From the IMG/VR virus record IMGVR_UViG_3300028024_000105, positions 1 to 64,000 of that record: DNA of 64,000 nt; one strand, 5' to 3'. The notes under the pieces are model-generated. The model saw only the letters and a program-made list of their open reading frames with translations. It made no database searches and had not been told where the DNA came from. Shown piece after piece: positions 5,685-63,975 of the stretch. Both the position numbers and the translations under genes were made by a program. The stretch is from a virus. The first letter of the stretch is position 1, and the number at the start of each line of letters is the position of its first letter.

Positions 5685-5698
5685 GGGTCCAAGTGAAC

Positions 5699-15097: not shown

Positions 15098-16273
15098 ATG
15101 CGGTGCAAGGAAAACATCGTGGACCTGCCGGAGCTGACCCAGCGCCTGAAGACGGAGTCGGCGCGGACCCGGGACCTGCTCGCGCGCGCGGACGTGTGCG
15201 ACGTGCTCACCGACGGCAAGGAGACCCTCTTCAAGGTGAACGGCCGGGCCTACCGGATCGAGGAGCAGACCCACGGCCAGCTCGCGGGCAAGACGGGCGT
15301 GCCCAAGGCGTACTACGACAAGATGAAGCTCGATGCGCCCGAGCTGCTCGCCGAGAACCTGAACCACTGGCTGCACCAGAGCAAGAAGACCCATCTCGTC
15401 CGGCTGATGGACGACGCCGTCCGTGCCTTCCTGTCCGACCGCTACCGCCCGATCAACCACCTGGATCTGGTCACCGTCGCGATGCAGGTCCTCTGCGGGA
15501 TGGACGGGCAGGCCGGGGAAGCCAAGCCCCACGCGCGCGGCGCCCGCTGCATGTCGTGGGACCTGACGCCCACGATGCTCGACGTCCGCTTCGTCAACCC
15601 GGCCATCTGGGTCGACCTGGAGAAGCTCGACGAGGGCCTGCACATCGACACCGACCTGACCGACGACGAGATCGAGAAGCGCATCATGCGGCGCGGGCTC
15701 GCGGTCGACCGCACGGACTGGAGCGACACGACGGTCTACCCGTCGGCGCTGCTCTACAACAGCGAGACCGGCCACGGCGGACTCGGCATCGAACCCGGCC
15801 TGATGGAGGGGCTCTGCATCAACTTCAACTGGTACGGCAAGTCCCTCGAGCAGCGGCATCTCGGCAAGACGCTCGAGATGGACGACATGTTCTCGAGCGA
15901 GACCTACAAGAAGATGAACGCCGTCGTCTTCTCGAAGGCCGCCGACACCTTCCGGTCGGTGTTCGAGCCCGAGCAGTTCCTCGTGTCCTGCAGGCGCTTC
16001 GCGGGCCTGAAGGAAGTCGAGATCGACGTCAAGGACGCGGTCGACAACATCGTCGAGCTGCCCGGCATGACCGAGGGCCTGCGTGACGACATCATGCAGA
16101 CCTACCTGCTCTACAAGTCCCACGGCAAGCGCAAGCACGACAACCTGTTCGACCTGAACCGCGCGGTCACGGAAGTGGCCCAGAAGGTCGAGAACCCCGA
16201 GCAGGCGCTGGCCCTGGAACAGCTCGGCGGCGAGCTGATCCTGACGGGCGGGGATTCGAAACTGATTTCCTGA
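15098..16273 (+). CDS. DUF932-like phage protein
   Basis: QLA..TGVP..YY.KM...PEL...NLN.WL, RAFLSDRY, NSETG.G, C.N; strong SD. Confidence 0.7.
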   Translation: MRCKENIVDLPELTQRLKTESARTRDLLARADVCDVLTDGKETLFKVNGRAYRIEEQTHGQLAGKTGVPKAYYDKMKLDAPELLAENLNHWLHQSKKTHLVRLMDDAVRAFLSDRYRPINHLDLVTVAMQVLCGMDGQAGEAKPHARGARCMSWDLTPTMLDVRFVNPAIWVDLEKLDEGLHIDTDLTDDEIEKRIMRRGLAVDRTDWSDTTVYPSALLYNSETGHGGLGIEPGLMEGLCINFNWYGKSLEQRHLGKTLEMDDMFSSETYKKMNAVVFSKAADTFRSVFEPEQFLVSCRRFAGLKEVEIDVKDAVDNIVELPGMTEGLRDDIMQTYLLYKSHGKRKHDNLFDLNRAVTEVAQKVENPEQALALEQLGGELILTGGDSKLIS

Positions 16274-16336
16274 AGCGTCTTACGAGACGAGGGACGACGG
16301 TAGTACAGTCGTCCGTGCGACCGGTAGTTGCAGTAC

Positions 16337-16368
16337 GGGGCCGAGGGGTTCGAAACCTCTCGGCCCCA
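16337..16368 (+). ncRNA. tRNA minihelix (acceptor stem plus T arm only)
   Basis: GGGGCCG-AGGGG-TTCGAAA-CCTCT-CGGCCCC-A: 7+5 bp with a T-loop. Confidence 0.55.
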
Positions 16369-16389
16369 CGATCATCGGTCCAAGAGATT

Positions 16390-16480
16390 GAAGATTTCCG
16401 GAAGTGCCTGTTCGAATCGGGCGGCGAGGATTAGTCCTCGCTTGGTGTAATTGGCAGCACACCGGAGCAAAAGATTTTTC
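16390..16480 (+). ncRNA. Circularly permuted tRNA-like RNA (YrlA Y-RNA-like topology)
   Basis: Order: TCCGG, T arm, acceptor stem closed by TTAG loop, D arm, CCGGA; the two ends pair. Confidence 0.75.
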
Positions 16481-16520
16481 AAATTCCGCTGGTGGGGATC
16501 TCGATACAGCCAGCGGACAT

Positions 16521-16594
16521 GGGGTCCTCGTTCAACAGAAGGACCGCTGCTTTGCAAGCAGCAGATGCGAGTGCGATTCTCGCGGACTCCACCA
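16521..16594 (+). tRNA. tRNA-Ala(TGC)
   Basis: GGGGTCC/GGACTCC with G3:U70, anticodon arm GCTGC-TTTGCAA-GCAGC, encoded ACCA; atypical T loop TGCGATT. Confidence 0.9.
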
Positions 16595-16700
16595 AATTTC
16601 GGCGAGCGGTGCACGAACAAGAGCCACAATAAGGTCTCCGCACCTGTGGCCAGTAAAGGATGCACTCACGGACTCGCCGCAATATTTTGTCCAAGTAGTT

Positions 16701-17050
16701 ACCAACGAAGACGACGAACGACACACGACAGACGAAACCACCACACATCTAGCGCTGGCTTAGGAAGCTCCGGCGCATCTTCAGGAGCTACCTACCTGGG
16801 CCGCGTACGTCGCGGCTCGGTCGTGCTCTTTCCAAAAGCAAGACAACGGATACAGACCCCTTCCAGACGAACGGATGAAACCGCCGTCGTAGTGGTCCGC
16901 GAGGATCAGTGGGGGTTGTGCTGGCGCTGTACGCGGCGGTAAAGCTACACCTGGACGCTTCCTTCGGGACGGCACGACAAAATCTATACCCGACACACTT
17001 GGGACATCCCCTCAAGTCTGTGGCGTTGTCTGAACAAATTCACGCCTTCC
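16701..17050 (+). ncRNA. Putative structured ncRNA
   Basis: No credible ORF; starts 5 nt after GTCCAAG; A/C-rich 5' tract followed by many hairpins. Confidence 0.5.
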
Positions 17051-17148
17051 GAGAAGCGTAGGTGGCGCTCTGCCCCGACACGCCTTGGGACTTGCGGATT
17101 TCATCCGCGCTCCGCTCAAGTCTCCTGAACGCAAGCGTCCTACGGAAC

Positions 17149-17472
17149 ATGATGAACGAGAACGCATGCAGGCTGGACAGCCCCGGCTGGTGCTACGAGC
17201 ACGATCAGGCAGTAGAGAACTGCCTTCACTTCTTCCGCCTGTCCCGCAAGCTCCAGCACGACATCGTTTCGCTGCAGAAGGAGCGGATCGAGACCCTTGA
17301 GGGACAGCTCGGACACGCCGCCGATCTGTGCGGGCAGGCCAAGGACGTCCTCGTGAAGTCCGAAGAAGCGCTCGACCTGGAGCGCGCCAAGGTGACCTAC
17401 GAACAGGCCGAGAACGACGCGCTGCACGTCGAGAACTATCTGCTGCGCGAGCTGCTGAAGGCAGTGCTCTGA
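17149..17472 (+). CDS. Coiled-coil hypothetical protein (leaderless)
   Basis: ATG 5 nt after CGTCCTAC. Confidence 0.6.
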   Translation: MMNENACRLDSPGWCYEHDQAVENCLHFFRLSRKLQHDIVSLQKERIETLEGQLGHAADLCGQAKDVLVKSEEALDLERAKVTYEQAENDALHVENYLLRELLKAVL

Positions 17473-17837: not shown

Positions 17838-18500
17838 ATGAATCTCGGCGACCGCATGAAGGCGTACGAGACGGCGACGCACTTCGTCCTGCCCGTCCGC
17901 ATGCCGGTGATCATCCGTCTGGACGGCAAGGCGTTCCACACACTGACCCGGGACTGCCTGAAGCCGTTCGACAGCACGCTCCGGCGGGCCATGGTTGAGG
18001 CGACGCTGGCTCTCCTGGACGAGATCCCGGCCCGGGTCGCCTACCACCAGTCCGACGAGGTCTCGCTGCTCCTGATCGACTACAACCTGTTCAACAGCCA
18101 GCAGTGGTTTCGCGGGCAGATCCAGAAGATGGCCAGCGTCGCGGCGTCGATCATGGGCGCCGAGTTCAGCATGAACTGGGGCAGCCCCGGCTACTTCGAC
18201 GCCCGGGTGTTCGCCGTTCCCGAGCGAGACGTCGAGAATTACTTCCTGTGGCGCCAGCGCGACGCCATGCGGAACGCCATCAGCGGCGCGGCGCAGGCGT
18301 ACTTCCCACCCGCCGCCCTGCACGGCCTGGACACCACGGCGATGATCGTCCTGCTCGACCAGATCGGCGTCACCTTCGAGGAGTACCCGGCCTGGTACCG
18401 GCGCGGCACGCTCGCGATGCGCGGACTCGCCGTCTCGGCGCCGGATTTCTCCGGGCCGGAGCACGTGATCCAACAGTTCCTCGAAATCGAAGAGCAGTAG
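17838..18500 (+). CDS. tRNA(His) guanylyltransferase Thg1-like protein (3'-5' polymerase)
   Basis: RMKAYE, IIRLDGKAFH, QSDEVSL, FDARVF, YFLWRQRDA.RN. Confidence 0.93.
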   Translation: MNLGDRMKAYETATHFVLPVRMPVIIRLDGKAFHTLTRDCLKPFDSTLRRAMVEATLALLDEIPARVAYHQSDEVSLLLIDYNLFNSQQWFRGQIQKMASVAASIMGAEFSMNWGSPGYFDARVFAVPERDVENYFLWRQRDAMRNAISGAAQAYFPPAALHGLDTTAMIVLLDQIGVTFEEYPAWYRRGTLAMRGLAVSAPDFSGPEHVIQQFLEIEEQ

Positions 18501-21226: not shown

Positions 21227-21799
21227 ATGGCAGAGATCGGCAGCATTGTTTCCGCGCGTCCGACGTTCGAAGATCGGCTGAAGAGGTACAACGGGTGGCT
21301 GCACAAGGTGGCGGCCCACCACTCGGGCACGCATCCCTACGGGGGTGAGGACGACATCTTTCAGGACCTATGCCTGGTCCTCTTCAAGTGCCACGAGAAG
21401 TACGTCACCGAAACTGGTGGCTGCCTCTCATTCCCCGGCGGCGAATTCCACAACCTGTTCGCCACGGCGGTCGCCAACCAGATCGCATCGCACTTCCGTC
21501 TCAAGATGCTGGAGCACGACAAGAAGATGTTCCGCATCGACGCCGCCAAGGCGCGCGGAACGGTCGGCAACGGCGGTCGCGAGCAAGGCTCTGAACCCGA
21601 CGTCGTCGCTCTCGCGTCGGCCGTCCGGACCGAGGAGTCCGAAGACTTCTACCGCGCCGGGATCTTCGATCTGATCGGCGAGCTGGACCCCGAGACGGCC
21701 AAGGTCGTCATGGAGGCGCTGGAGCCGCAGAACCGGGGGCCGAAGGCCGGGCGCGCGGCGGCCTACCACAAGGTCCGCAACAAGCTGAACGATCTGTGA
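21227..21799 (+). CDS. Sigma-factor-like protein (region 2-like)
   Basis: Y.GWLHKVA...EDDIFQDLCL.LF.C..KY...F..LF..AV.N resembles sigma region 2. Confidence 0.6.
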   Translation: MAEIGSIVSARPTFEDRLKRYNGWLHKVAAHHSGTHPYGGEDDIFQDLCLVLFKCHEKYVTETGGCLSFPGGEFHNLFATAVANQIASHFRLKMLEHDKKMFRIDAAKARGTVGNGGREQGSEPDVVALASAVRTEESEDFYRAGIFDLIGELDPETAKVVMEALEPQNRGPKAGRAAAYHKVRNKLNDL

Positions 21800-22182
21800 T
21801 CAAGCCGGACTGTTACGGCAGGCTGCACGATCCGAAGAACACATGGTGCAAGGGCTGCGCGCTCTTCCTACCCTGCGCCATCGCTTCCGCCAAGGCGCCG
21901 CCGGGCGACATTGCCGAAATAGGCCACATCACGAGGAGTCCAAGCGAACGCCCCAACCTATTCAAGGAGGGCTCGCGCGCCTGGGCTGCCTGCCGGGCCG
22001 CGAACCTGAAAGGCGGGACGTTCCGAGAATCCGAGATCCTGCCGCTGTACATGGCGACCTGCCGTGCCTGGGGCATCGAGCCCGGCAGCGCGGAGCGAAA
22101 CGTCCACCACGCCGTCGTGCAAATGGTGAAGCGGGGCGTCCTACGGAGAGTACGGAAATCCTACATGTCTCATGCTGACTGA
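21796..22182 (+). CDS. Hypothetical protein, N-terminal Cys cluster, possible winged helix
   Basis: CYG..D....CKGC....C. Confidence 0.55.
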   Translation: MIKPDCYGRLHDPKNTWCKGCALFLPCAIASAKAPPGDIAEIGHITRSPSERPNLFKEGSRAWAACRAANLKGGTFRESEILPLYMATCRAWGIEPGSAERNVHHAVVQMVKRGVLRRVRKSYMSHAD

Positions 22183-25100
22183 CGCCGACTTCACCGACCT
22201 GCACGTCCATTCCAGTTTCTCTCTCCTAGACGGCGCCGCGAATCCCGAACAGTTGCTCGAGGCCAGCCAGCGTCTGGGCCGAAAGCACATGGCCGTGACG
22301 GATCACGGGAACGTCGACGGCTGGCTCCGATTCCAGAAGGCCGCCAAGAAGATGGACGTCAAGCCCATCTTCGGCATCGAGCTGTTCATGCTCGAGAACT
22401 TCGAGGAGCGCCACACCGGCAAGCCAAAGAACCTCCACCTGACGGCCATCGCCAAGACCGAGCAGGGCCTGGGCAAGCTCGTGCAGGCGTGCGGCTTCGC
22501 GAACATGGAGGGGATGGGAAAGAGCGGCTACGCCGCCCGGCCGTTCCTTCCGATGGACTACCCCATCGTGAACAAGTGGCCCGGCGACGTGATCATCATG
22601 ACCGGCTGCGCCAGCTCGCCTTTCTGGAACGCCGCCGACGGGATCGAGCTGCTCGGCTACTACGCCGACGCGTTCAAGGGCGACCTGTACGCGGAGATCA
22701 TGCCGAACGAGGAGTTCGAGCTGCAGAAGACGATCAACGCGTCGGCGATGCAGGCCGCGAGCTACTTCGGGATCAAGCCGGTGGTCACCACCGACATCCA
22801 CTACATCTCGCCCGAAGACAGCGAGTTCCACGAGGTCGTCATCGGCCTGTCCCAGAAGTACATGACCTGGAGCAACCCGAAGCGCTGGAAGTTCGAGTCG
22901 CACAACAACTACGTCCACAACATCACGCAACTAGTCGAATCCCTCATGCGCATGGGCCTGACCGAAGAGCAGGTCCGGCAGATGGTGTTCAGCACCAGCG
23001 AGATCGCCGAGAAGACCATCCACAAGATCCACCAGCCGACCATCAAGTTGCCGCCAGTGATCGGAGACATCAGTGAAGAAGAAGAGCGAGAGCGGTTCCT
23101 ACAGCTCGTCCTCGACGGGCTCCGCACCCGAGGCGTTGCGAACACGCCCGGGTATCTCGAGCGCGTCGCGGCCGAATACGACATCATCGCTCCCAAGGGC
23201 TTCGTCCGGTACATGCTCATGGTTTGGGACGTGGTGCGCTGGGCCAAGTCGCACGGCATTCTTATCGGTCCGGCGCGCGGTTCTGTGGGTGGGAGCCTGG
23301 TTGCGTTTGCTCTTGGAATAACCGACATCGACCCGATCAAGTACCGGCTCTGGTTCGAGCGCTTCATCGACCCCGAGCGCATCGACATGCCGGACATCGA
23401 CATCGACATCGAGGACCGCAACCGACACCTGGTCGAGCAGTACCTCAAGGAGAAGTACGGCCAGTGGAACGTCGCGCACGTCTCGACCTTCGCGTCGATG
23501 CTGGGCAAGATGGCGCTGAAGGACGTCGGCCGCCTGTTCGAGGTCCCGCTCGCCGAAGTGCAGAAGATGTGCAACTGCATCATCCACGCACACGAGTCGG
23601 ACGTCCGAGCGCACCTGACGATTCAGGACACCATCGCGAGCGGCGACGCGACGGCCGTCGAGTTCCAGAAGAAATACCCTCATGTCGTCCACTTCGCCCA
23701 GAAGCTCGAGGGGCAGGTCCGTGGGTGCGGCATCCACGCGGCCGGGTTCGTGATCTCCGACGAGGACCTGCGCACGTCGGCGCGCGCCTACCTAGTCACC
23801 CGGCGCGACAAGGTCACGATCAACTGGGACAAGAACGACGCCGAATCCATGGGCTTCGTCAAGCTCGACCTGCTCGGGCTGCAGACTCTGTCGGCCGTCG
23901 CCGAGGCATCGCGTCTGATCGAGGCGCGCCACGGACGCAAGATCGACTTCACTCAGCTCCCCCTGGATGACCCCAAGACGTACGAGATGATCCAGCGCGG
24001 CGACACGGTGACCTGCTTCCAGATCAACACGCCCAGCATGCAGAGGTACTGCGCGAAGCTGAAGCCCGAGAACTTCGAGCACCTGGCCGCCATCACCGCG
24101 CTGTGGCGCCCCGGCCCAATCCAGTCCGGCGCCGCAGACATGTACGCCAAGTGCAAGAACGGCCTGGAGCCTGTCCACTACGCCAGCGACGCCTTCAAGA
24201 GCATCACCGAGATCAGCTACGGGCAGATGATCTATCAGGAGCAGGTTGCCCAGATGCTGATGAAGCTGGCGGGCTACACCTACGCGCAGGCCGACAAGGT
24301 CCGCAAGATCGTGTCGAAGAAGGGCGGCGTTCAGGCGTGGGACGACGAGGAGCCCAAGTTCGTGGCGGGCTGCGAGAAGATCGGCCTGCTGAACCCCGAT
24401 CAGGCACACGAGCTGTGGCAGTCCTCCAAGATGTTCGCGCTCTACGCGTTCAACCGTGCGCACTCGGTCGGCTACGGCATGCTGGCCTACTGGACCGCGT
24501 ACCTGAAGGCGAACTACCCGGCCGAGTGGCTCTGCTCGTTCCTGAACTACGGCAACGCGGACCGCGAGGATCTGAAGACCGGGGAGATCAACCGAGATGT
24601 TGCTCTGCGCGAGGCCCTGCGCTCGGGCATCGAGATCCTGGTCCCCGACATCAACGAGTCCGACGTGATCTGGACCGTGGCAACGACCAAGCACAACAAG
24701 CCCGCCCTTCGGGTCGGCCTGCAGGACATCAAGTTTGTCGGCGAGACGGCTGTCGAGGAGATCCAGAAGCTGAAGTCCCGTACCCGCCAGATCGAGACGC
24801 TCGAGAAGTTCGTGCTCGAAGGGGTCGACCGGCGCTGCTGCAACAAGAAGGTGATCAAGGCTCTATTCTACTGCGGCGCTTTCGATCAGATCATCTCGCC
24901 CGACATCTACGACCGCTGGGTGAAGCAGTACGACCAGATGTACGACACCATGGAGAAGCCCAAGAAGCGGGCCGAGCTGCTTGCGACCGCCGTTCCTGAA
25001 GGTGAGAAGCAGGAGATCATCGCGCGCGAGCGCAACATCTTCCTGCGGTTCGATCCTCTCGCCATCGACGGTGCGAACGCGGCCGAGCGCATGGCCAAGA

Positions 25101-25798
25101 TCCTGGGAGGCACGCTCGACCTGGACGCCGAGGAGCCCTTCATCCAGCGTGGCGAACTGAAATGGCCGGTCTCCGATGCTACTCTTGGATTGCTGCCCGG
25201 CGCCAACGGCGTGCTCGGCGAACGTCCGGCGGACGTCCGGCAGATCCGCAAGGACACCAAGGACTGCCAGCTCTGCGACCTGCGTGGCTCCTGCAAGGCA
25301 CCCGTGCCCGTCGACCCGGGCCAGCTCGACATCATGGTGGTGGCCGAGGCGCCCGGGAAGAACGAGGACAAGGTCGGCAAGCCGCTGATCGGAGACTCCG
25401 GAAACGTGCTCTGGCCTGAGCTGGAGCGTCTCGGTGTCTCTCGCGAGATGGTCTACGTCTCGAACTCCGTCAAATGCCTGCCCCCGGCGAAGACCAAGCC
25501 CACGCCCGAGCAGATCGACGGTTGCCCGTGGCTCGAGAAGGAGATCAAGGCCATCAAGCCGAAGACCATCCTGGCGCTGGGCAACTCCGCGCTCTACTAC
25601 TTCACGGGGAAGGAGAAGGGCATCATGGAGATGAACGGCAAGACGGAGTGGAACACCAAGGCGAACGCGTGGGTGACCTTCTGCATCCACCCGGCCAATC
25701 TGCTGTACGCGCGCGAGGCCGAGGAACTGGCGTCCCGGGAGCTGATGTTCCGCGAGGCGTTGACCGAATTCGCGCGGGTCATTTTTCAATTTGCATGA
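22172..25798 (+). CDS. dnaE: DNA polymerase III alpha subunit with C-terminal family-4 UDG domain
   Basis: PHP DLHVHS/TDHG; GPARGS, FERFIDPER..MPDIDID, KLDLLGL, YAFNRAHS; C-terminal CxxC..C, AEAPG, NSVKC.PP, HPA. Confidence 0.95.
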   Translation: MLTDADFTDLHVHSSFSLLDGAANPEQLLEASQRLGRKHMAVTDHGNVDGWLRFQKAAKKMDVKPIFGIELFMLENFEERHTGKPKNLHLTAIAKTEQGLGKLVQACGFANMEGMGKSGYAARPFLPMDYPIVNKWPGDVIIMTGCASSPFWNAADGIELLGYYADAFKGDLYAEIMPNEEFELQKTINASAMQAASYFGIKPVVTTDIHYISPEDSEFHEVVIGLSQKYMTWSNPKRWKFESHNNYVHNITQLVESLMRMGLTEEQVRQMVFSTSEIAEKTIHKIHQPTIKLPPVIGDISEEEERERFLQLVLDGLRTRGVANTPGYLERVAAEYDIIAPKGFVRYMLMVWDVVRWAKSHGILIGPARGSVGGSLVAFALGITDIDPIKYRLWFERFIDPERIDMPDIDIDIEDRNRHLVEQYLKEKYGQWNVAHVSTFASMLGKMALKDVGRLFEVPLAEVQKMCNCIIHAHESDVRAHLTIQDTIASGDATAVEFQKKYPHVVHFAQKLEGQVRGCGIHAAGFVISDEDLRTSARAYLVTRRDKVTINWDKNDAESMGFVKLDLLGLQTLSAVAEASRLIEARHGRKIDFTQLPLDDPKTYEMIQRGDTVTCFQINTPSMQRYCAKLKPENFEHLAAITALWRPGPIQSGAADMYAKCKNGLEPVHYASDAFKSITEISYGQMIYQEQVAQMLMKLAGYTYAQADKVRKIVSKKGGVQAWDDEEPKFVAGCEKIGLLNPDQAHELWQSSKMFALYAFNRAHSVGYGMLAYWTAYLKANYPAEWLCSFLNYGNADREDLKTGEINRDVALREALRSGIEILVPDINESDVIWTVATTKHNKPALRVGLQDIKFVGETAVEEIQKLKSRTRQIETLEKFVLEGVDRRCCNKKVIKALFYCGAFDQIISPDIYDRWVKQYDQMYDTMEKPKKRAELLATAVPEGEKQEIIARERNIFLRFDPLAIDGANAAERMAKILGGTLDLDAEEPFIQRGELKWPVSDATLGLLPGANGVLGERPADVRQIRKDTKDCQLCDLRGSCKAPVPVDPGQLDIMVVAEAPGKNEDKVGKPLIGDSGNVLWPELERLGVSREMVYVSNSVKCLPPAKTKPTPEQIDGCPWLEKEIKAIKPKTILALGNSALYYFTGKEKGIMEMNGKTEWNTKANAWVTFCIHPANLLYAREAEELASRELMFREALTEFARVIFQFA

Positions 25799-34124: not shown

Positions 34125-34678
34125 AGACCCCGCTCCGATCCTTTCTCCGTCCGGACGCCTACGCGCCGTTCTTCAGCTTCGGACGCCGGATAGCATCGCC
34201 CGAAGCCTTCTTCCATGGTCTCAAGTTCCGGCACGGATCGCCATTGCAGAGCGCGGTCATGATGGAGCGCGAGTTGGCGCAGTACCGTGGCCGCCCGTTC
34301 GCTCGCCGGACCTATATCTTCGCGGGCTTCCACTTCGGCGTCGACACCCTAGAGCACTATCTCCTGCTCAAGACCGTGATGCGCAGCAAGTTGACCCAGC
34401 ACAAGCAAGAGCTGCTGTGGTTGATGGACGACACGGTCCTGGAGGACTACGGCCGCCTAGGCGGCTGGCACGGAGACGGCTTCGGAGGTCCCGAGTACGC
34501 TCGGATCATCCGCGAGCTGCGACAGGAGTTCCAGTGCCGTCTCGAGGAGACCGGCTCCATCAACTTCACATCCGCCAGCGAATTCAGCGCCATGACGAAC
34601 AGGCAGTTCTTGTTCGGCGACACCCACGGCGTGCGTCCGCACCACAAGAGGCGAGCCCATGAGTCAGTTCAAGGTTGA
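34121..34678 (+). CDS. Hypothetical protein
   Basis: GTGA start/stop overlap; coding-like codon usage. Confidence 0.55.
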   Translation: MKTPLRSFLRPDAYAPFFSFGRRIASPEAFFHGLKFRHGSPLQSAVMMERELAQYRGRPFARRTYIFAGFHFGVDTLEHYLLLKTVMRSKLTQHKQELLWLMDDTVLEDYGRLGGWHGDGFGGPEYARIIRELRQEFQCRLEETGSINFTSASEFSAMTNRQFLFGDTHGVRPHHKRRAHESVQG

Positions 34679-35672
34679 GATCGTCCGCGTCGGCAAGATC
34701 GGCAAGCACCCCAACGCCGACACTCTGTCGGTCACGCACGTGTTCGATTTCCCCGTGGTGTTCCGGACCGGAGACTTCATCGAAGGCCAGAAGGCTGTCT
34801 ACGTGCCCGTGGACTCGCTCGTGCCCACTGATCGGCCGGAGTTCGAATTCCTGAAGGAAGAAGGCAAGACGCACGCGCGGATCAAGGCCAAGAAGCTGCG
34901 CGGCATCTTCTCGATGGGCATGATCGTCCCGATCTGCGTTGCGACGTTCGGCGAGCGTTGCGCGGAGCTGGGTGACAACGTCGCCGAGCTGCTGGGCGTC
35001 ACCAAGTACGAACCCGAAGTCCCGATGCACTGGGGCGGCCAGAACGAGCGCGACCCCGGCTTCATCCCGGTCTACACCGACATCGACCATTACCGCCGGT
35101 ATCCCGACATCCTGCAACCCGGAGAAAACGTCATCGTGACGGAGAAGCTGCACGGCGCCAACGCCCGCTTCACCTTCCACGAGGGACGGCTGTGGGTCGG
35201 CTCGCACAACTGCATCAAGCGAGACGCGCCCGAAAGCATGTGGTGGAACATGGCCCGGAAGTACCAGCTCGCCGAGCGACTGGCCAAGTTCCCCGGCCAT
35301 GTCTTCTACGGCGAGGTCTACGGCCACGTGCAGGACCTGAAGTACGGCTCGAAGGGGCCTGTCGACACCTGGTTGCGGTTCTTCGACGTCTTCAAGTGGA
35401 GCACCGGCAGCTACGCCGACCAAGACGAGACGGCCAACATCATCCTGGGGCTGGGCCTGAACATGGTGCCGCTGCTCTACGTCGGCGGCTGGCAGCCCGA
35501 GTTCATCCTCCCTCTGGCCGACGGATCGACGACGCTCGGAGGCCAGTGCATTCGTGAAGGCATCGTGATCAAGCCCGCCAAAGAGCGGCGAGACGACCGG
35601 CTCGGCCGCGTCATCCTGAAGCACGTCAGCGAAGGATACCTCACGCGGAAATCCGGAACCGAATACCACTAG
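34659..35672 (+). CDS. RNA ligase, DRB0094/Rnl5 family
   Basis: N-terminal OB (HPNAD.L, LRG..S.G), TEKLHGAN, YGEVYG, FDV, VPLLY, REGIVIK, LK. Confidence 0.9.
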   Translation: MSQFKVEIVRVGKIGKHPNADTLSVTHVFDFPVVFRTGDFIEGQKAVYVPVDSLVPTDRPEFEFLKEEGKTHARIKAKKLRGIFSMGMIVPICVATFGERCAELGDNVAELLGVTKYEPEVPMHWGGQNERDPGFIPVYTDIDHYRRYPDILQPGENVIVTEKLHGANARFTFHEGRLWVGSHNCIKRDAPESMWWNMARKYQLAERLAKFPGHVFYGEVYGHVQDLKYGSKGPVDTWLRFFDVFKWSTGSYADQDETANIILGLGLNMVPLLYVGGWQPEFILPLADGSTTLGGQCIREGIVIKPAKERRDDRLGRVILKHVSEGYLTRKSGTEYH

Positions 35673-46790: not shown

Positions 46791-47030
46791 GAGCGAGAAG
46801 CCGACGTAACCCGGGGCTGCACCTGTACGTAGCTGCGCACCGTACAGCAGGGCCTGCCAATACCGGGGTACATCGCTCAAAGACAGCTCGTCGGGCGCGA
46901 ACGCGGGCGAAAACGGCCGTAGCGTGACAGCCGGAGAGACGGCAAAAATTCGCCCTGGTGGTGGCTTTCTGCTGCTTCACCACCTTCGCCGCGTTGGAAG
47001 CCGAGCAGCGTCACGACGCGGACAGGGTTG
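46791..47030 (+). ncRNA. Putative structured ncRNA(s)
   Basis: Predicted TSS G46791 equals the first base of closing stem GAGCGA/TCGCTC(46873-78); further hairpins to about 47030. Confidence 0.55.
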
Positions 47031-55150: not shown

Positions 55151-55510
55151 ATGAAGCGTGCTCTGTTGATTCTGTGCCTGGCCGGATGCGTGCCCCAGCC
55201 CGCCGAGCTGCCGCAGGAAGCTCCCACGATCCGCGCGTCTCACCCCGAGTGGAGCGCGAAGGTCTGCGAGGCTGTCGAGCGCGGCCTGATGTGGGAGGGG
55301 ATGAACATCGACCAGTTCCAGTGCTCGGCCCTGTACGGACAGGGCAACGCTCTGGTCTATCCCGACGGCCCCCATCACCATCGGGCCGCCGACACCGCGA
55401 GCGAATCCAAGAACGGCTACATGCTTAGGTACGAGAAGTCGTACGTCTGGATCACCGGCTTCTTCGACAAGGGCGGCATGATGGTCGACTACCGGAAGAC
55501 GGCTCGCTGA
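55151..55510 (+). CDS. Predicted lipoprotein (possible superinfection exclusion)
   Basis: MKR..LAGC lipobox; directly upstream of integrase. Confidence 0.65.
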   Translation: MKRALLILCLAGCVPQPAELPQEAPTIRASHPEWSAKVCEAVERGLMWEGMNIDQFQCSALYGQGNALVYPDGPHHHRAADTASESKNGYMLRYEKSYVWITGFFDKGGMMVDYRKTAR

Positions 55511-56601
55511 TGGGCTACGTCTACCGGCGCGTCTGGCCGAGTGGCAAGGTCCGTTTCATCATCGCCTACACCGACGTCGACGGCCGCACCAAGCGCCGAG
55601 TGACGAAGGCCGAGTCGAAGCTGGTGGCCAAGCGTCTGCTGTCGGCCGCCGAGAACGACGTCGAGCGCGCGAAGCTGCAGGGCATGCAGTCCCGAGACAC
55701 CATCGTGACCCGGCCCGAGGTCGTGACGTTCCGCGCCGCAACGGCCGAGTACGTGAAGCACCACGCGTCTAAGCTGAAGGCGAGCACCAAGGACTCGTAC
55801 GAGCTGATCCTGGAGAAGCACCTTCTGCCCTCGTTCGGCTCCAGCGCGCTCCGCGACATCACCATCCGCGACGTCGAGAGGTACATGACGGCGCGCCTGG
55901 GCGCCGACAACGGGGACGGTGGGAAGATCCAGCCCGCCACCGTCCGCAACGAAGTCCACTGCCTGTCGAGCGTGTTCCGGTACGCCGTCCGCTCGGCCAT
56001 GGTCCAGCACAATCCCGTCCGAGATTCCCAGAAGCCGAGGACCGAGCAGAAGATCCTGCGCTTCCTGGACCCGGCCGAGGAGAAGGAGATCCTCTCGCGC
56101 GCGTACTCGCCCCTGCGCGAGGCCATCGTGACCGCCATCCACTCCGGCATGCGCGAGGGGGAACAGGCCGCGCTGCTCTGGTCTGACGTCCGCATGGACG
56201 AACGCAAGATCATCGTCCGGCACACCAAGAACGGCCGGGACCGGGCCATCGACATGAGCGACACGCTGTACGAGACGCTCAAGAGCCTGATCCGGTACAC
56301 CGACTGCCCGTACGTCTTCGTGAACCCGCGCGCGCACGAGCGGTACGAGCGGTTCAACAACACGGCCTGGAGGAAGGTCTTGCGGGACGCCGACGTGAAG
56401 AGCCTGCGCTGGCACGATCTTCGGCACACGTTCTGCTCGCGGCTCGCGCAGCGCGGCGTCCACCCCAAGACGATCATGGAGCTGTCCGGCCACAGCAGCC
56501 TGAGCCAAGTGGAGCGGTATGCCCACATGACGCCGGACCATCGGGCGGCGGCCGTCAAGGTCCTGGACCAGAAGCCCAAGAGGAAGGCCAAGGCGCAGTG
56601 A
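55510..56601 (+). CDS. int: Tyrosine integrase with N-terminal arm-binding domain
   Basis: SGMREGE, TKNG, HDLRHT, SGHSS, RY catalytic Tyr. Confidence 0.93.
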   Translation: MGYVYRRVWPSGKVRFIIAYTDVDGRTKRRVTKAESKLVAKRLLSAAENDVERAKLQGMQSRDTIVTRPEVVTFRAATAEYVKHHASKLKASTKDSYELILEKHLLPSFGSSALRDITIRDVERYMTARLGADNGDGGKIQPATVRNEVHCLSSVFRYAVRSAMVQHNPVRDSQKPRTEQKILRFLDPAEEKEILSRAYSPLREAIVTAIHSGMREGEQAALLWSDVRMDERKIIVRHTKNGRDRAIDMSDTLYETLKSLIRYTDCPYVFVNPRAHERYERFNNTAWRKVLRDADVKSLRWHDLRHTFCSRLAQRGVHPKTIMELSGHSSLSQVERYAHMTPDHRAAAVKVLDQKPKRKAKAQ

Positions 56602-56959: not shown

Positions 56960-57376
56960 ATGAGCGGTCACATCCTTGGCGACATCTCTTCCCAGAAACT
57001 CCCCGAGCGATTCAGCGCGAGCTACTTCTTCGAGCGCGACTGTTGGATCGACTGCCGGGTTCCTGAGATGATCACCATCGACCCCACGGCCGAGATCGGC
57101 TGGGAGGTCAAGATGGTCTGCATGTCGCACGACATCAACCCCGGTATGTTCGGCCGCCTGGTCGGACGCCCCATCAAGATCGGCGCAAAAGCCTTCATCG
57201 CGGGGTTCGCGCTGTTGTACAATTGCGAGATCGGCGAAGGTGCCGTCGTCGCCGTGGGCTCGGTGGTGAGAAGCCAGAAGGTCGAGCCCTGGACGGTTGT
57301 GGCCGGGAATCCGGCCGTGCCCGTGAAGCGCTACGACTGGGGCCTGAAGAAGTGGGTCCCGATCCCGCCCCCGTAG
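56960..57376 (+). CDS. Hexapeptide-repeat O-acetyltransferase (leaderless)
   Basis: PIKIG..AFI, IGEGAVVAVGSVV, VAGNPA. Confidence 0.85.
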   Translation: MSGHILGDISSQKLPERFSASYFFERDCWIDCRVPEMITIDPTAEIGWEVKMVCMSHDINPGMFGRLVGRPIKIGAKAFIAGFALLYNCEIGEGAVVAVGSVVRSQKVEPWTVVAGNPAVPVKRYDWGLKKWVPIPPP

Positions 57377-57443
57377 GTCAATTGGATAGACCATCCGGTT
57401 TCTACCCGGATAGTTGCAGGTTCGAGTCCTGCCGGGGGTACCA
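57367..57443 (+). tRNA. tRNA-Arg(TCT)
   Basis: GCCCCCG/CGGGGGT, D arm GGTC/GACC, TCCGG-TTTCTAC-CCGGA, GCAGG-TTCGAGT-CCTGC, ACCA. Confidence 0.95.
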
Positions 57444-63218: not shown

Positions 63219-63303
63219 CCACTATCTGCAGGGCAGTTACAGATTGCCTGTCACACCGATAGGCCACTGCCGTCCTATTCCCGTCACCGAAACGGAGGAT
63301 GGG

Positions 63304-63975
63304 ATGAAGACCTGGGCGCTGCACCGCGAAGACCTGATGACCCGCGAGGAGTGGCTGAAGCTCCGTTCCCACCTGCAGGCCAAGTACGACCTGGCCGTCG
63401 CCCGCGACACCTGGACGGCGGTTCAGGATCTGGTCATCTGCTTCACCGCCATCTACACGGGCCTGCGCCGGATGGAGCTGGCCGGACTTCGGCTCGGTGA
63501 CCTGCACCTGACGAATGAGAATCCCTTCATCGTGGTCCGCCACGGTAAGGGTGACAAATTCCGCGAGGTCGTGATCTCCCCGAGCACGCGCGCGATGCTG
63601 AAGTCCTTCCTGCGCTCGCAGCACGTGACGCCCGAGGACGCGCCGGATCGCTTCCTGTTCGTCCCGCAGCGCGGCGAGCACTACACCCCGGACGGGATCT
63701 ACCGGGTCTGGAAGACGGCCTGCCGCGAAGCGGGCATCCGCGAGGTCTCCATCCACAAGGCCCGGCACCTGTACTGCACCACCCTCTACGCGGTGAAGAA
63801 GGACGCCCGGTTCGTGCAGCGGCAGGCCGGACACACGCGCCTGACCACGACGCAGGTGTACATCGACATCACCGACGTGGACGCCAACGAGAATCTGGTC
63901 CTTCTCGATAAGGCTTTGACGCAGCGTCCTACGGTGCATGAATCTGTCGGAGGCGCTGGCTGCCGCACAGCGTAA
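63304..63975 (+). CDS. Short XerC/D-like tyrosine recombinase (catalytic domain only)
   Basis: TGLRRME, GKGDK.R, HKARH, GH, TTQVY. Confidence 0.88.
   Translation: MKTWALHREDLMTREEWLKLRSHLQAKYDLAVARDTWTAVQDLVICFTAIYTGLRRMELAGLRLGDLHLTNENPFIVVRHGKGDKFREVVISPSTRAMLKSFLRSQHVTPEDAPDRFLFVPQRGEHYTPDGIYRVWKTACREAGIREVSIHKARHLYCTTLYAVKKDARFVQRQAGHTRLTTTQVYIDITDVDANENLVLLDKALTQRPTVHESVGGAGCRTA

Follow-up and report, generated by a model that had tools for sequence, protein, structure and literature searches.

The stretch of phage DNA analyzed here (the window) comprises positions 1-64,000 of the 96.8-kb IMG/VR contig IMGVR_UViG_3300028024_000105, which comes from an uncultured phage of soil origin, has a G+C content of 63% and is ~73% complete as estimated by CheckV. 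A 750-nt non-coding block in this window is preceded by a replication module (helicase, DnaB and primase) and a 391-aa DUF932-like gene, and is followed by a Thg1-like gene (17838-18500) and then by a fusion of DNA polymerase III alpha with uracil-DNA glycosylase. The block holds a tRNA-Ala gene and, next door to it, the subject of this study: an element with a core at 16397-16466 (+) and an RNA length of about 93 nt, in which the 3' half of a tRNA is encoded ahead of the 5' half. On balance, we favor the reading that this is a phage gene for a tRNA mimic of the YrlA class, in which a bacterial or phage Y RNA is reduced to its tRNA-like module. What we observed is the sequence, the predicted fold, and a design that recurs in phages and is strongly linked there to Ro60-like genes; how the mimic is transcribed and processed, and what it binds, we infer.

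Sequence, predicted fold and putative transcription of the element

Read in the 5'-to-3' direction on the + strand, the element begins with U and UCCGG (16396-16401, tRNA positions 39-43), the 3' strand of an anticodon-stem analogue that pairs with 16462-16467. The variable region AAGU (16402-16405), with G46 and U48 as read from the sequence and the ARAGORN drawing, leads into a T arm, GCCUG / UUCGAAU / CGGGC (16406-16422), seen in the sequence, in the fold and by ARAGORN. There follows a sealed acceptor hairpin (16423-16442), which consists of GGCGAGG (positions 66-72) and A73 at 16423-16430, a UUAG loop (TTAG in the DNA, 16431-16434), and U(-1) and CCUCGCU (positions 1-7) at 16435-16442; its stem has 7 bp plus a closing U(-1)-A73 pair. 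The segment 16443-16461, assigned from the sequence and by ARAGORN, contains U8 and G9 (TG in the DNA, 16443-16444), the D arm GUGU / AAUUGGCA / GCAC (GTGT/AATTGGCA/GCAC in the DNA, 16445-16460) and A26 (16461), after which CCGGA (positions 27-31) and a further G (16462-16467) are predicted to form the 5' strand of the anticodon-stem analogue. Upon re-reading the sequence we found every segment of the permuted element where the original prediction had placed it.

Beyond an 8-nt one-sided internal loop, a weak outer helix pairs UUGAAGA (16388-16394) with UUUUCAA (16476-16482) in the minimum free energy (MFE) structure of 16385-16485. This 7-bp helix enters the MFE structure only when the RNA begins at or before 16388, and is absent from the predicted fold of an RNA beginning at G16390. 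The pairing of the termini GAAGA and TTTTC proposed earlier thus holds for the longer RNA and is not predicted for one that starts at G16390.

The MFE structure calculated by RNAfold is a cloverleaf, with z scores of -2.3 and -2.55 in two runs and none of 200 shuffled sequences as stable in the second run, and the standard tertiary residues of tRNA, read by eye, are in place: U8, A14, the A15-U48 Levitt pair, G18 and G19, A21, G46, G53-C61 and T54-A58. When the two halves were re-joined via a 7-nt dummy loop, ARAGORN reported a tRNA of 75 nt, in agreement with the T-acceptor-D fold first proposed; repeating this operation across the whole 96.8-kb contig, both strands included (193,460 registers in total), produced a single call, at 16396/16397. 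A chance origin was rejected on this ground: the fold and the single call indicate that the structure is real.

Both halves are complete and nearest to phage tRNA-Gln/Trp, with a D arm identical to that of phage tRNA-Gln/Trp genes, which suggests a tRNA-Gln/Trp scaffold as the origin. These complete halves, together with the RNA ligase encoded by the phage and a 7-bp acceptor that suits RNase P, speak for a true circularly permuted tRNA gene, one of the two identities first proposed for the element; its ends would be joined, for instance by the phage ligase, and RNase P and a 3' nuclease would excise the acceptor loop to leave a working tRNA, probably on the Gln/Trp scaffold. Permuted tRNA genes are known from Cyanidioschyzon merolae, some green algae and Thermofilum (reviewed in PMC4090602). 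Like the element, they encode the 3' half first and link the acceptor ends by a short insert that RNase P and a 3' nuclease can remove. However, they rebuild a tRNA through a bulge-helix-bulge motif and circularization, whereas the element, which belongs to a bacterial virus, has neither loop halves nor a bulge-helix-bulge motif. No standard anticodon loop can be formed from the flanks, which supply G32 and U37, and the helix runs past the stem with an additional U-G pair, so a working permuted tRNA is unlikely. Its homologues, described below, point the same way: two phages (G004 and G015) have copies that leave only 0-14 nt to adjacent tRNAs, and the Ro60-adjacent copies carry long arms, not loop halves. 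The proposal of a permuted tRNA gene is thus very improbable.

Two-piece tmRNA genes likewise encode a permuted tRNA-like domain whose acceptor end is interrupted by an intervening segment; they differ from the element, which has a full D arm, has neither a tag reading frame nor an encoded CCA, and is negative by ARAGORN. A permuted tmRNA was rejected because two tRNAs are all that ARAGORN -m detects in the contig, with no tmRNA, and an attP remnant because the complementary 5' half and the D arm would be left unexplained.

The motif GTCCAAG at 16378-16384 (+), 5 nt 5' of G16390, is a candidate phage-specific promoter element. The contig contains 38 copies versus 12 expected, a three-fold excess, with 34 copies on the + strand and 4 on the - strand; several lie exactly 5 nt ahead of ATG or GTG, and another precedes the next RNA, at ~16701. 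The motif behind the "class C" transcription start originally assigned to G16390 is therefore real, and its excess and spacing fit a phage-specific promoter for leaderless mRNAs; from these statistics it is plausible that the element has a promoter of its own. A search of 16200-17200 detected no sigma-70-like promoter, and no intrinsic terminator was predicted to separate the element from tRNA-Ala (16521-16594). A phage-specific promoter, a start at G16390 and co-transcription with tRNA-Ala can reasonably be inferred from the sequence. Further copies of GTCCAAG occur at window positions 5687, 41643, 46516, 47235, 48444 and 56948, among others, and a sigma-factor-like gene is found at 21227-21799 (phrog_1740, E 5.7e-5). 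A likeness of GGUCCAAG to GGUCCGA, the vertebrate Ro60 contact, was dropped in view of the 38 copies in the contig, several of them preceding start codons.

Relatives in other phages and their association with Ro60-like genes

Relatives were sought with a covariance model built from this single sequence (R1) and with a pattern scan of IMG/VR. The matches were mostly junctions of tandem tRNA genes, false positives that we excluded by discarding every match overlapping an ARAGORN tRNA. The true stand-alone, full-length and acceptor-sealed copies found in this way belong to two phages (G004 and G005), both of which encode TROVE, the Ro60 domain. In G005 the copies belong to a set of five repeated Y-RNA-like units, ~1 kb 5' of the Ro60 gene and in the same orientation. 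G004, a complete genome of 251 kb, has two adjoining copies that fill the interval between tRNA-Phe and tRNA-Asn without spacer or flanking arms (L020, 2545-2682 (-) of IMGVR_UViG_3300049144_000095); TROVE is 48 kb away and a Thg1-like gene 56 kb away, these two genes being 9 kb apart. At locus L014 (8900-9560 (-), IMGVR_UViG_3300042127_000003), five tandem Y-RNA-like units lie 5' of a phage Ro60 gene; all of them open with GAUGCG(U/C)AG ... UACUUC and close with UUUCUAG, and only two of the five contain the permuted tRNA module, indicating that the handle is common and the effector part varies.

In an alignment of five sequences, 97% of the cells are paired and compensatory changes are seen at 16 of 23 pairs, a result matched by none of 500 shuffles; these figures lean toward the model, because the alignment was fitted to it. 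By helix, the anticodon-stem analogue is 92% paired with compensatory changes at 3 of 6 pairs, the T arm 100% (4 of 5) and the acceptor 97% (7 of 8). This bears on the idea that the element is a functionless, decaying remnant of two tandem tRNA genes, namely the 3' half of the first and the 5' half of the next. It is true that the T-then-D order also arises at tandem tRNA junctions, the chief source of false positives with our models, and that no orthologue demonstrates conservation of this copy. On the other hand, all 23 modeled pairs are standard, even in the acceptor and anticodon stems, whose two strands would on this view derive from different genes; the tertiary residues are all standard as well, and on either side the break coincides exactly with the anticodon stem. 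Furthermore, GTCCAAG stands 5' of the element, and many phages share the architecture while differing by compensatory changes. We therefore give the remnant hypothesis very little credence.

To place the design among phages more broadly, a survey with model R2, TROVE and Thg1 covered 50 phage records chosen via their Thg1-like genes and 50 without Thg1, plus G004; DUF2828 was checked in the records without TROVE, and the tabulation was limited to records at least 85% complete plus G004. Stand-alone elements were present in 11 records, of which eight encode TROVE, two DUF2828 (G015 and G020) and one neither (G094), so that a Ro60-like protein (TROVE or DUF2828) is encoded in 10 of the 11 near-complete phages with such elements. 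Of the 22 records without elements, for which TROVE alone was tallied, none has it. A hypergeometric test of TROVE against elements gives ~1e-5, several of the positive records being related phages. The elements lie immediately 5' of a Ro-like gene, on the same strand, in G020, G025, G028, G054, G055 and G092/G093, and the model of the present element scores 47-50 bits in G004, G028, G054 and G055. From the survey we conclude that this design is the form that the YrlA tRNA mimic takes in phages, and that it marks Ro60-like systems.

The phage elements differ in what surrounds the core. TROVE-adjacent elements share a 5' arm, GRUGCGNAG ... UACUUC, ~8-12 nt before the core, with matching 3' arms, and DUF2828-type elements bear a UUACAGCAA-like handle. 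The Rfam model of YrlA (RF02553, gathering score 69) gives 26-46 bits on 13 TROVE-linked phage elements, below the gathering score; it gives no match at E<=1 on the elements of G094, G015 and G020, and none at E<=0.1 on those of G004. The copies without a handle (the present element, that of G094, the two of G004 and those of G015) constitute a recognizable subgroup, of which we found no published description. The G015 copies abut tRNAs and are far from the Ro-like gene, and in G004 and G015 TROVE or DUF2828 is 45-50 kb off. These copies, with a Ro-like gene tens of kb away, show that the lack of a handle and of a neighboring partner gene is compatible with a genome that encodes a Ro-like protein.

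In the present contig and in five records (G015, G024, G025, G028 and G055), an element and a Thg1-like gene are no more than 10 kb apart. A specific link to Thg1 is not shown by these cases, because elements are common in the 50 Thg1-free records and the other sample was chosen via Thg1. Two permuted tRNA-like Y RNAs, Ro60/TROVE and a Thg1-like gene occur within ~5 kb in G028 (45.8-51.1 kb) and G025 (16.1-21.3 kb; loci L219, L221, L157 and L160), the same trio spans 9 kb in G055, and TROVE is present in 9 of the 50 Thg1-bearing phage records.

Relation to YrlA and possible function

YrlA RNAs were defined by a 5' GNCGAAN0-1G motif, which is the presumed Ro60 contact, a T-acceptor-D domain, and a Ro60 gene within 4 kb on the same strand (Chen et al. 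2014, PMC4201824). That study reported YrlA in 22 phages and discarded matches that overlapped tRNA arrays or lay more than 4 kb from Ro60. It also showed that, in vivo, RNase P cleaves the YrlA of M. smegmatis, which has a 7-bp acceptor, and that this RNA acquires a CCA tail. The present element has the same order of T arm, sealed acceptor stem-loop and D arm, with the tRNA tertiary residues including the 15-48 Levitt pair; a helix containing both RNA ends replaces the anticodon stem; and its acceptor has 7 bp, as in the M. smegmatis form. It differs in lacking the GNCGAAN0-1G motif, the long bulged Ro60-binding stem, a Ro60 gene in the contig and a match to RF02553, and is shorter, ~93 nt compared with the 114 positions of the RF02553 model.

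These differences weigh against assignment to the YrlA class, and they are best considered together. Nothing in Rfam 15 matched the element even at E<=10, and RF02553 in particular gave no match to it at E<=10, whether a 451-nt region or the whole contig was searched. In the complete 96.8-kb contig, which is ~73% of a genome, we found no TROVE/Ro60 gene (PF05731; positive controls were detected), no RtcB and no DUF2828 (PF11443; the same search finds this family in G015 and G020); the absence of a Ro60 gene noted for the window thus extends to the entire contig, and there is no Ro60/TROVE gene within ~4 kb on the same strand. The GNCGAAN0-1G motif has no match in 16370-16400, the nearest sequence being GUCCAAG, i.e., the 38-copy phage motif; the TROVE-type 5' arm GRUGCGNAG ... 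UACUUC is not in the element, and no DUF2828-type UUACAGCAA handle occurs 5' of the core. The outer helix has just 5-7 AU-rich pairs, so a Ro60 docking site is not evident, as had been noted at the outset for the long Ro-binding stem. That no handle is present counts as real evidence against the known mode of docking. At the 25 loci that carry relatives of the DUF932-like gene (27-51% identity) there is no R1 match, and the element appears as a single ~93-nt module after a gene whose relatives are without it; with no orthologue found, there is no covariation for this particular copy. Lastly, the element in G094, a complete 74-kb phage, has a short outer stem and is found without TROVE, DUF2828 or Thg1. 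The DUF7873 Pfam model had no match among the 66 open reading frames (ORFs) scanned, the other ORFs of the contig being outside that scan.

The YrlA-like identity first proposed is therefore partly supported: the architecture and the link to Ro60 or DUF2828 in phages stand, while the RF02553 match, the GNCGAAN0-1G motif or handle, and the Ro60-like gene are missing. The combination of a strong YrlA match with a nearby Ro60 gene, which according to the original prediction would have made the element a known one, was not seen either, neither part being found in this contig. The element is not a demonstrable member of YrlA; we regard it as a handle-less variant of the known YrlA-type design of phages and bacteria. 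It is the recurrence of this design and its association with Ro60-like proteins that lead us to a YrlA-class tRNA mimic rather than a working permuted tRNA gene.

Phage Ro60-like proteins have been described in two settings. In Thermus phage phiLo, Ro60 pairs with Yrl1 and Yrl2, and a Ro60-like protein has been tied to the hijacking of the host PNPase (PMC12135203); gp130 of Bas63 is a Ro60-like protein encoded beside tRNA genes, and such a protein has been tied to countering a defense system (PMC11482910). The Y-RNA-like partners in these pairs resemble our element in their permuted tRNA-like core and in their placement in or beside phage tRNA genes, but those adjacent to Ro carry a handle, whereas this element has neither handle nor partner gene. 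Similar in form are the handle-less units of G004 (two) and G015, which likewise consist of a bare core with little or no outer stem, lie among tRNAs, have no RF02553 match and occur in genomes with a Thg1-like gene. In contrast to the present case, their genomes contain TROVE or DUF2828 and the units abut tRNAs, while our element has GTCCAAG and a short outer helix.

Taken together, these comparisons suggest how the mimic may be made and used. The RNA would be transcribed from the GTCCAAG element, starting at G16390, and the transcript would probably extend through the hairpin and tRNA-Ala that follow; the 3' end of the mimic would be generated by RNase P cleavage at the 5' end of tRNA-Ala and subsequent trimming. 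It would fold into the tRNA L-shape through a fully standard D-loop/T-loop elbow; there is no anticodon loop, because the anticodon stem continues into a short open-ended helix. Host RNase P would probably nick the acceptor loop and the CCA-adding enzyme would probably tail the new 3' end: by analogy with YrlA of M. smegmatis, the standard elbow, the 7-bp acceptor and U(-1)/A73 make the RNA a likely RNase P substrate and CCA acceptor. The product would be a non-decoding RNA whose two strands stay joined through the acceptor stem and the anticodon-stem analogue, with a possible contribution from the outer helix, and its job would be to offer a tRNA surface (elbow, T arm and acceptor) to tRNA-binding proteins. 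Most likely it would serve a Ro60-like ring protein as RNA partner or adaptor, the protein being a product of the host or of the part of the genome that was not recovered; for a Ro60-like partner in the missing quarter of the genome we see roughly an even chance. Failing such a partner, the mimic may be a free decoy within a phage tRNA-repair gene set that includes the Thg1-like enzyme and the RNA ligase.

This last possibility can be extended to handle-less mimics in general. As decoys or spare parts located in tRNA islands, they may form a class of their own that operates without Ro60: after an RNase P nick, the RNA would serve with the Thg1-like enzyme and RNA ligase as substrate, template or regulator of tRNA-end repair, or would soak up a host factor that recognizes the elbow or acceptor. 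Neither a handle nor a Ro-like gene in this contig, the complete G094 genome with its element and without TROVE, DUF2828 or Thg1, and the lack of RF02553 matches for the elements of records without TROVE (the present one, G094, G015 and G020) speak for this idea, as do the Thg1-like gene within 10 kb here and in five other records and the RNA ligase of the contig. Opposed to it are the Ro60-like proteins encoded in 10 of the 11 near-complete element-bearing phages and the lack of a specific Thg1 link, given a preselected Thg1 sample and elements that are common in Thg1-free records; moreover, tRNA-related genes cluster in phages in any case. We consider this explanation unlikely, though far from negligible. 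Stated for the whole subgroup (the present element, G094, G004 twice and G015), with RNase P yielding a two-piece, CCA-ended RNA that acts with the Thg1-like enzyme or RNA ligase, or that decoys a host factor or defense reading the elbow and acceptor, it is a rather doubtful proposition.

The element may also be a tRNA-like processing signal with no later role, in the manner of mascRNA or of mitochondrial tRNA punctuation, recruiting RNase P or RNase Z to cut the non-coding transcript. Its location in a 750-nt non-coding RNA block, with a tRNA adjoining and a T-arm-like minihelix just 5' at 16337-16367, would suit such a role. However, a T arm and acceptor minihelix would suffice for this, leaving the full D arm, the Levitt pair and the anticodon-stem analogue superfluous, and a cut in the sealed acceptor loop would separate nothing, since the halves remain paired; a role confined to processing is hence quite improbable.

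The tRNA-like module of Y RNAs has been known since 2014. A bare mimic with a promoter-like motif, and with neither a handle nor a nearby Ro60, separates the tRNA-like module from the Ro-binding module; if expressed and stable, it would provide a direct route to what the tRNA-shaped part binds alone. The elements are common in large phages and can be used as a marker for Ro60-like genes, and their description should aid annotation, where they are readily mistaken for pseudo-tRNAs or overlooked.

Neighboring RNAs and genes

The mimic is followed by a predicted hairpin, CCGCUGG ... CCAGCGG (16486-16518, +), which is probably on the same transcript and is retained with two changes in a relative's contig from another sequencing run. 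Its loop contains GAUACAGCC (16499-16512, +), which recalls the UUACAGCAA-type handle and includes UACAGC at 16505. As a handle, this UACAGC is probably a chance occurrence: the contig has 27 copies, and this one is placed 3' of the core, the wrong side for a handle.

The tRNA-Ala(UGC) gene (16521-16594, +; ARAGORN, and 50.4 bits with the Rfam tRNA model) starts 55 nt 3' of the mimic. The tRNA keeps G3-U70, and its elbow is non-standard, because the D loop (AACAGAA) lacks G18 and G19 and the T loop (UGCGAUU) has G at position 55. Near-identical copies (0-2 differences) with other flanks are found in contigs from soil and groundwater runs of three other studies. Contigs of four other sequencing runs span the tRNA-Ala and its flanks but do not reach the element, and exact-word scans of viral and genome contigs for the neighboring tRNA-Ala gave no match. 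In one groundwater-run contig the tRNA-Ala is fused to 16744 onward, 54 other letters replacing 147 of 16596-16744, which indicates that the stretch between tRNA-Ala and the next RNA varies among relatives. The closest cultured phages share only 31-34% polymerase identity, and a distant-mode BLAST of 16280-16700 against 50,697 GenBank phages returned no matches.

Directly 3' of the DUF932-like gene is a GC-rich hairpin of 12 bp with the loop UUCGAAA and no U tail (16337-16367, +). It looks like a tRNA minihelix, in which a T arm stacks on an acceptor-like stem, and gives a weak match to mascRNA-menRNA (22.7 bits). Farther 3', a sub-threshold match to EGFOA RNA (RF02955; 29.6 bits, gathering score 37.7) at 16857-16977 (+) preserves the core GGUAAAGCUA.ACCUGG and falls inside the RNA that begins after the GTCCAAG copy at 16689. 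A CyVA-1 RNA (RF02965) at 46952-47028 (+) scores 49.4 bits, exceeding the gathering score of 41.4.

The Thg1-like 3'-5' nucleotidyltransferase gene (17838-18500, +; PF04446, 3.8e-25; phrog_4717, 1.5e-66) lies 1.4 kb 3' of the mimic, and an RNA ligase with an N-terminal OB fold and a nucleotidyltransferase domain is encoded at 34659-35672 (+; PF09414, 7.9e-25; PF21189, 4e-14). A single ORF of 1208 aa at 22172-25798 (+) combines DNA polymerase III alpha (PHP, NTPase, finger and HhH regions) with a C-terminal uracil-DNA glycosylase domain. Two tyrosine integrases are encoded among the ORFs at 55510-56601 (+) and 63244-63975 (+), one of them ~0.8 kb 5' of a tRNA-Arg(UCT) gene (57367-57443, +); the integrases and this tRNA gene hint that the phage is temperate.

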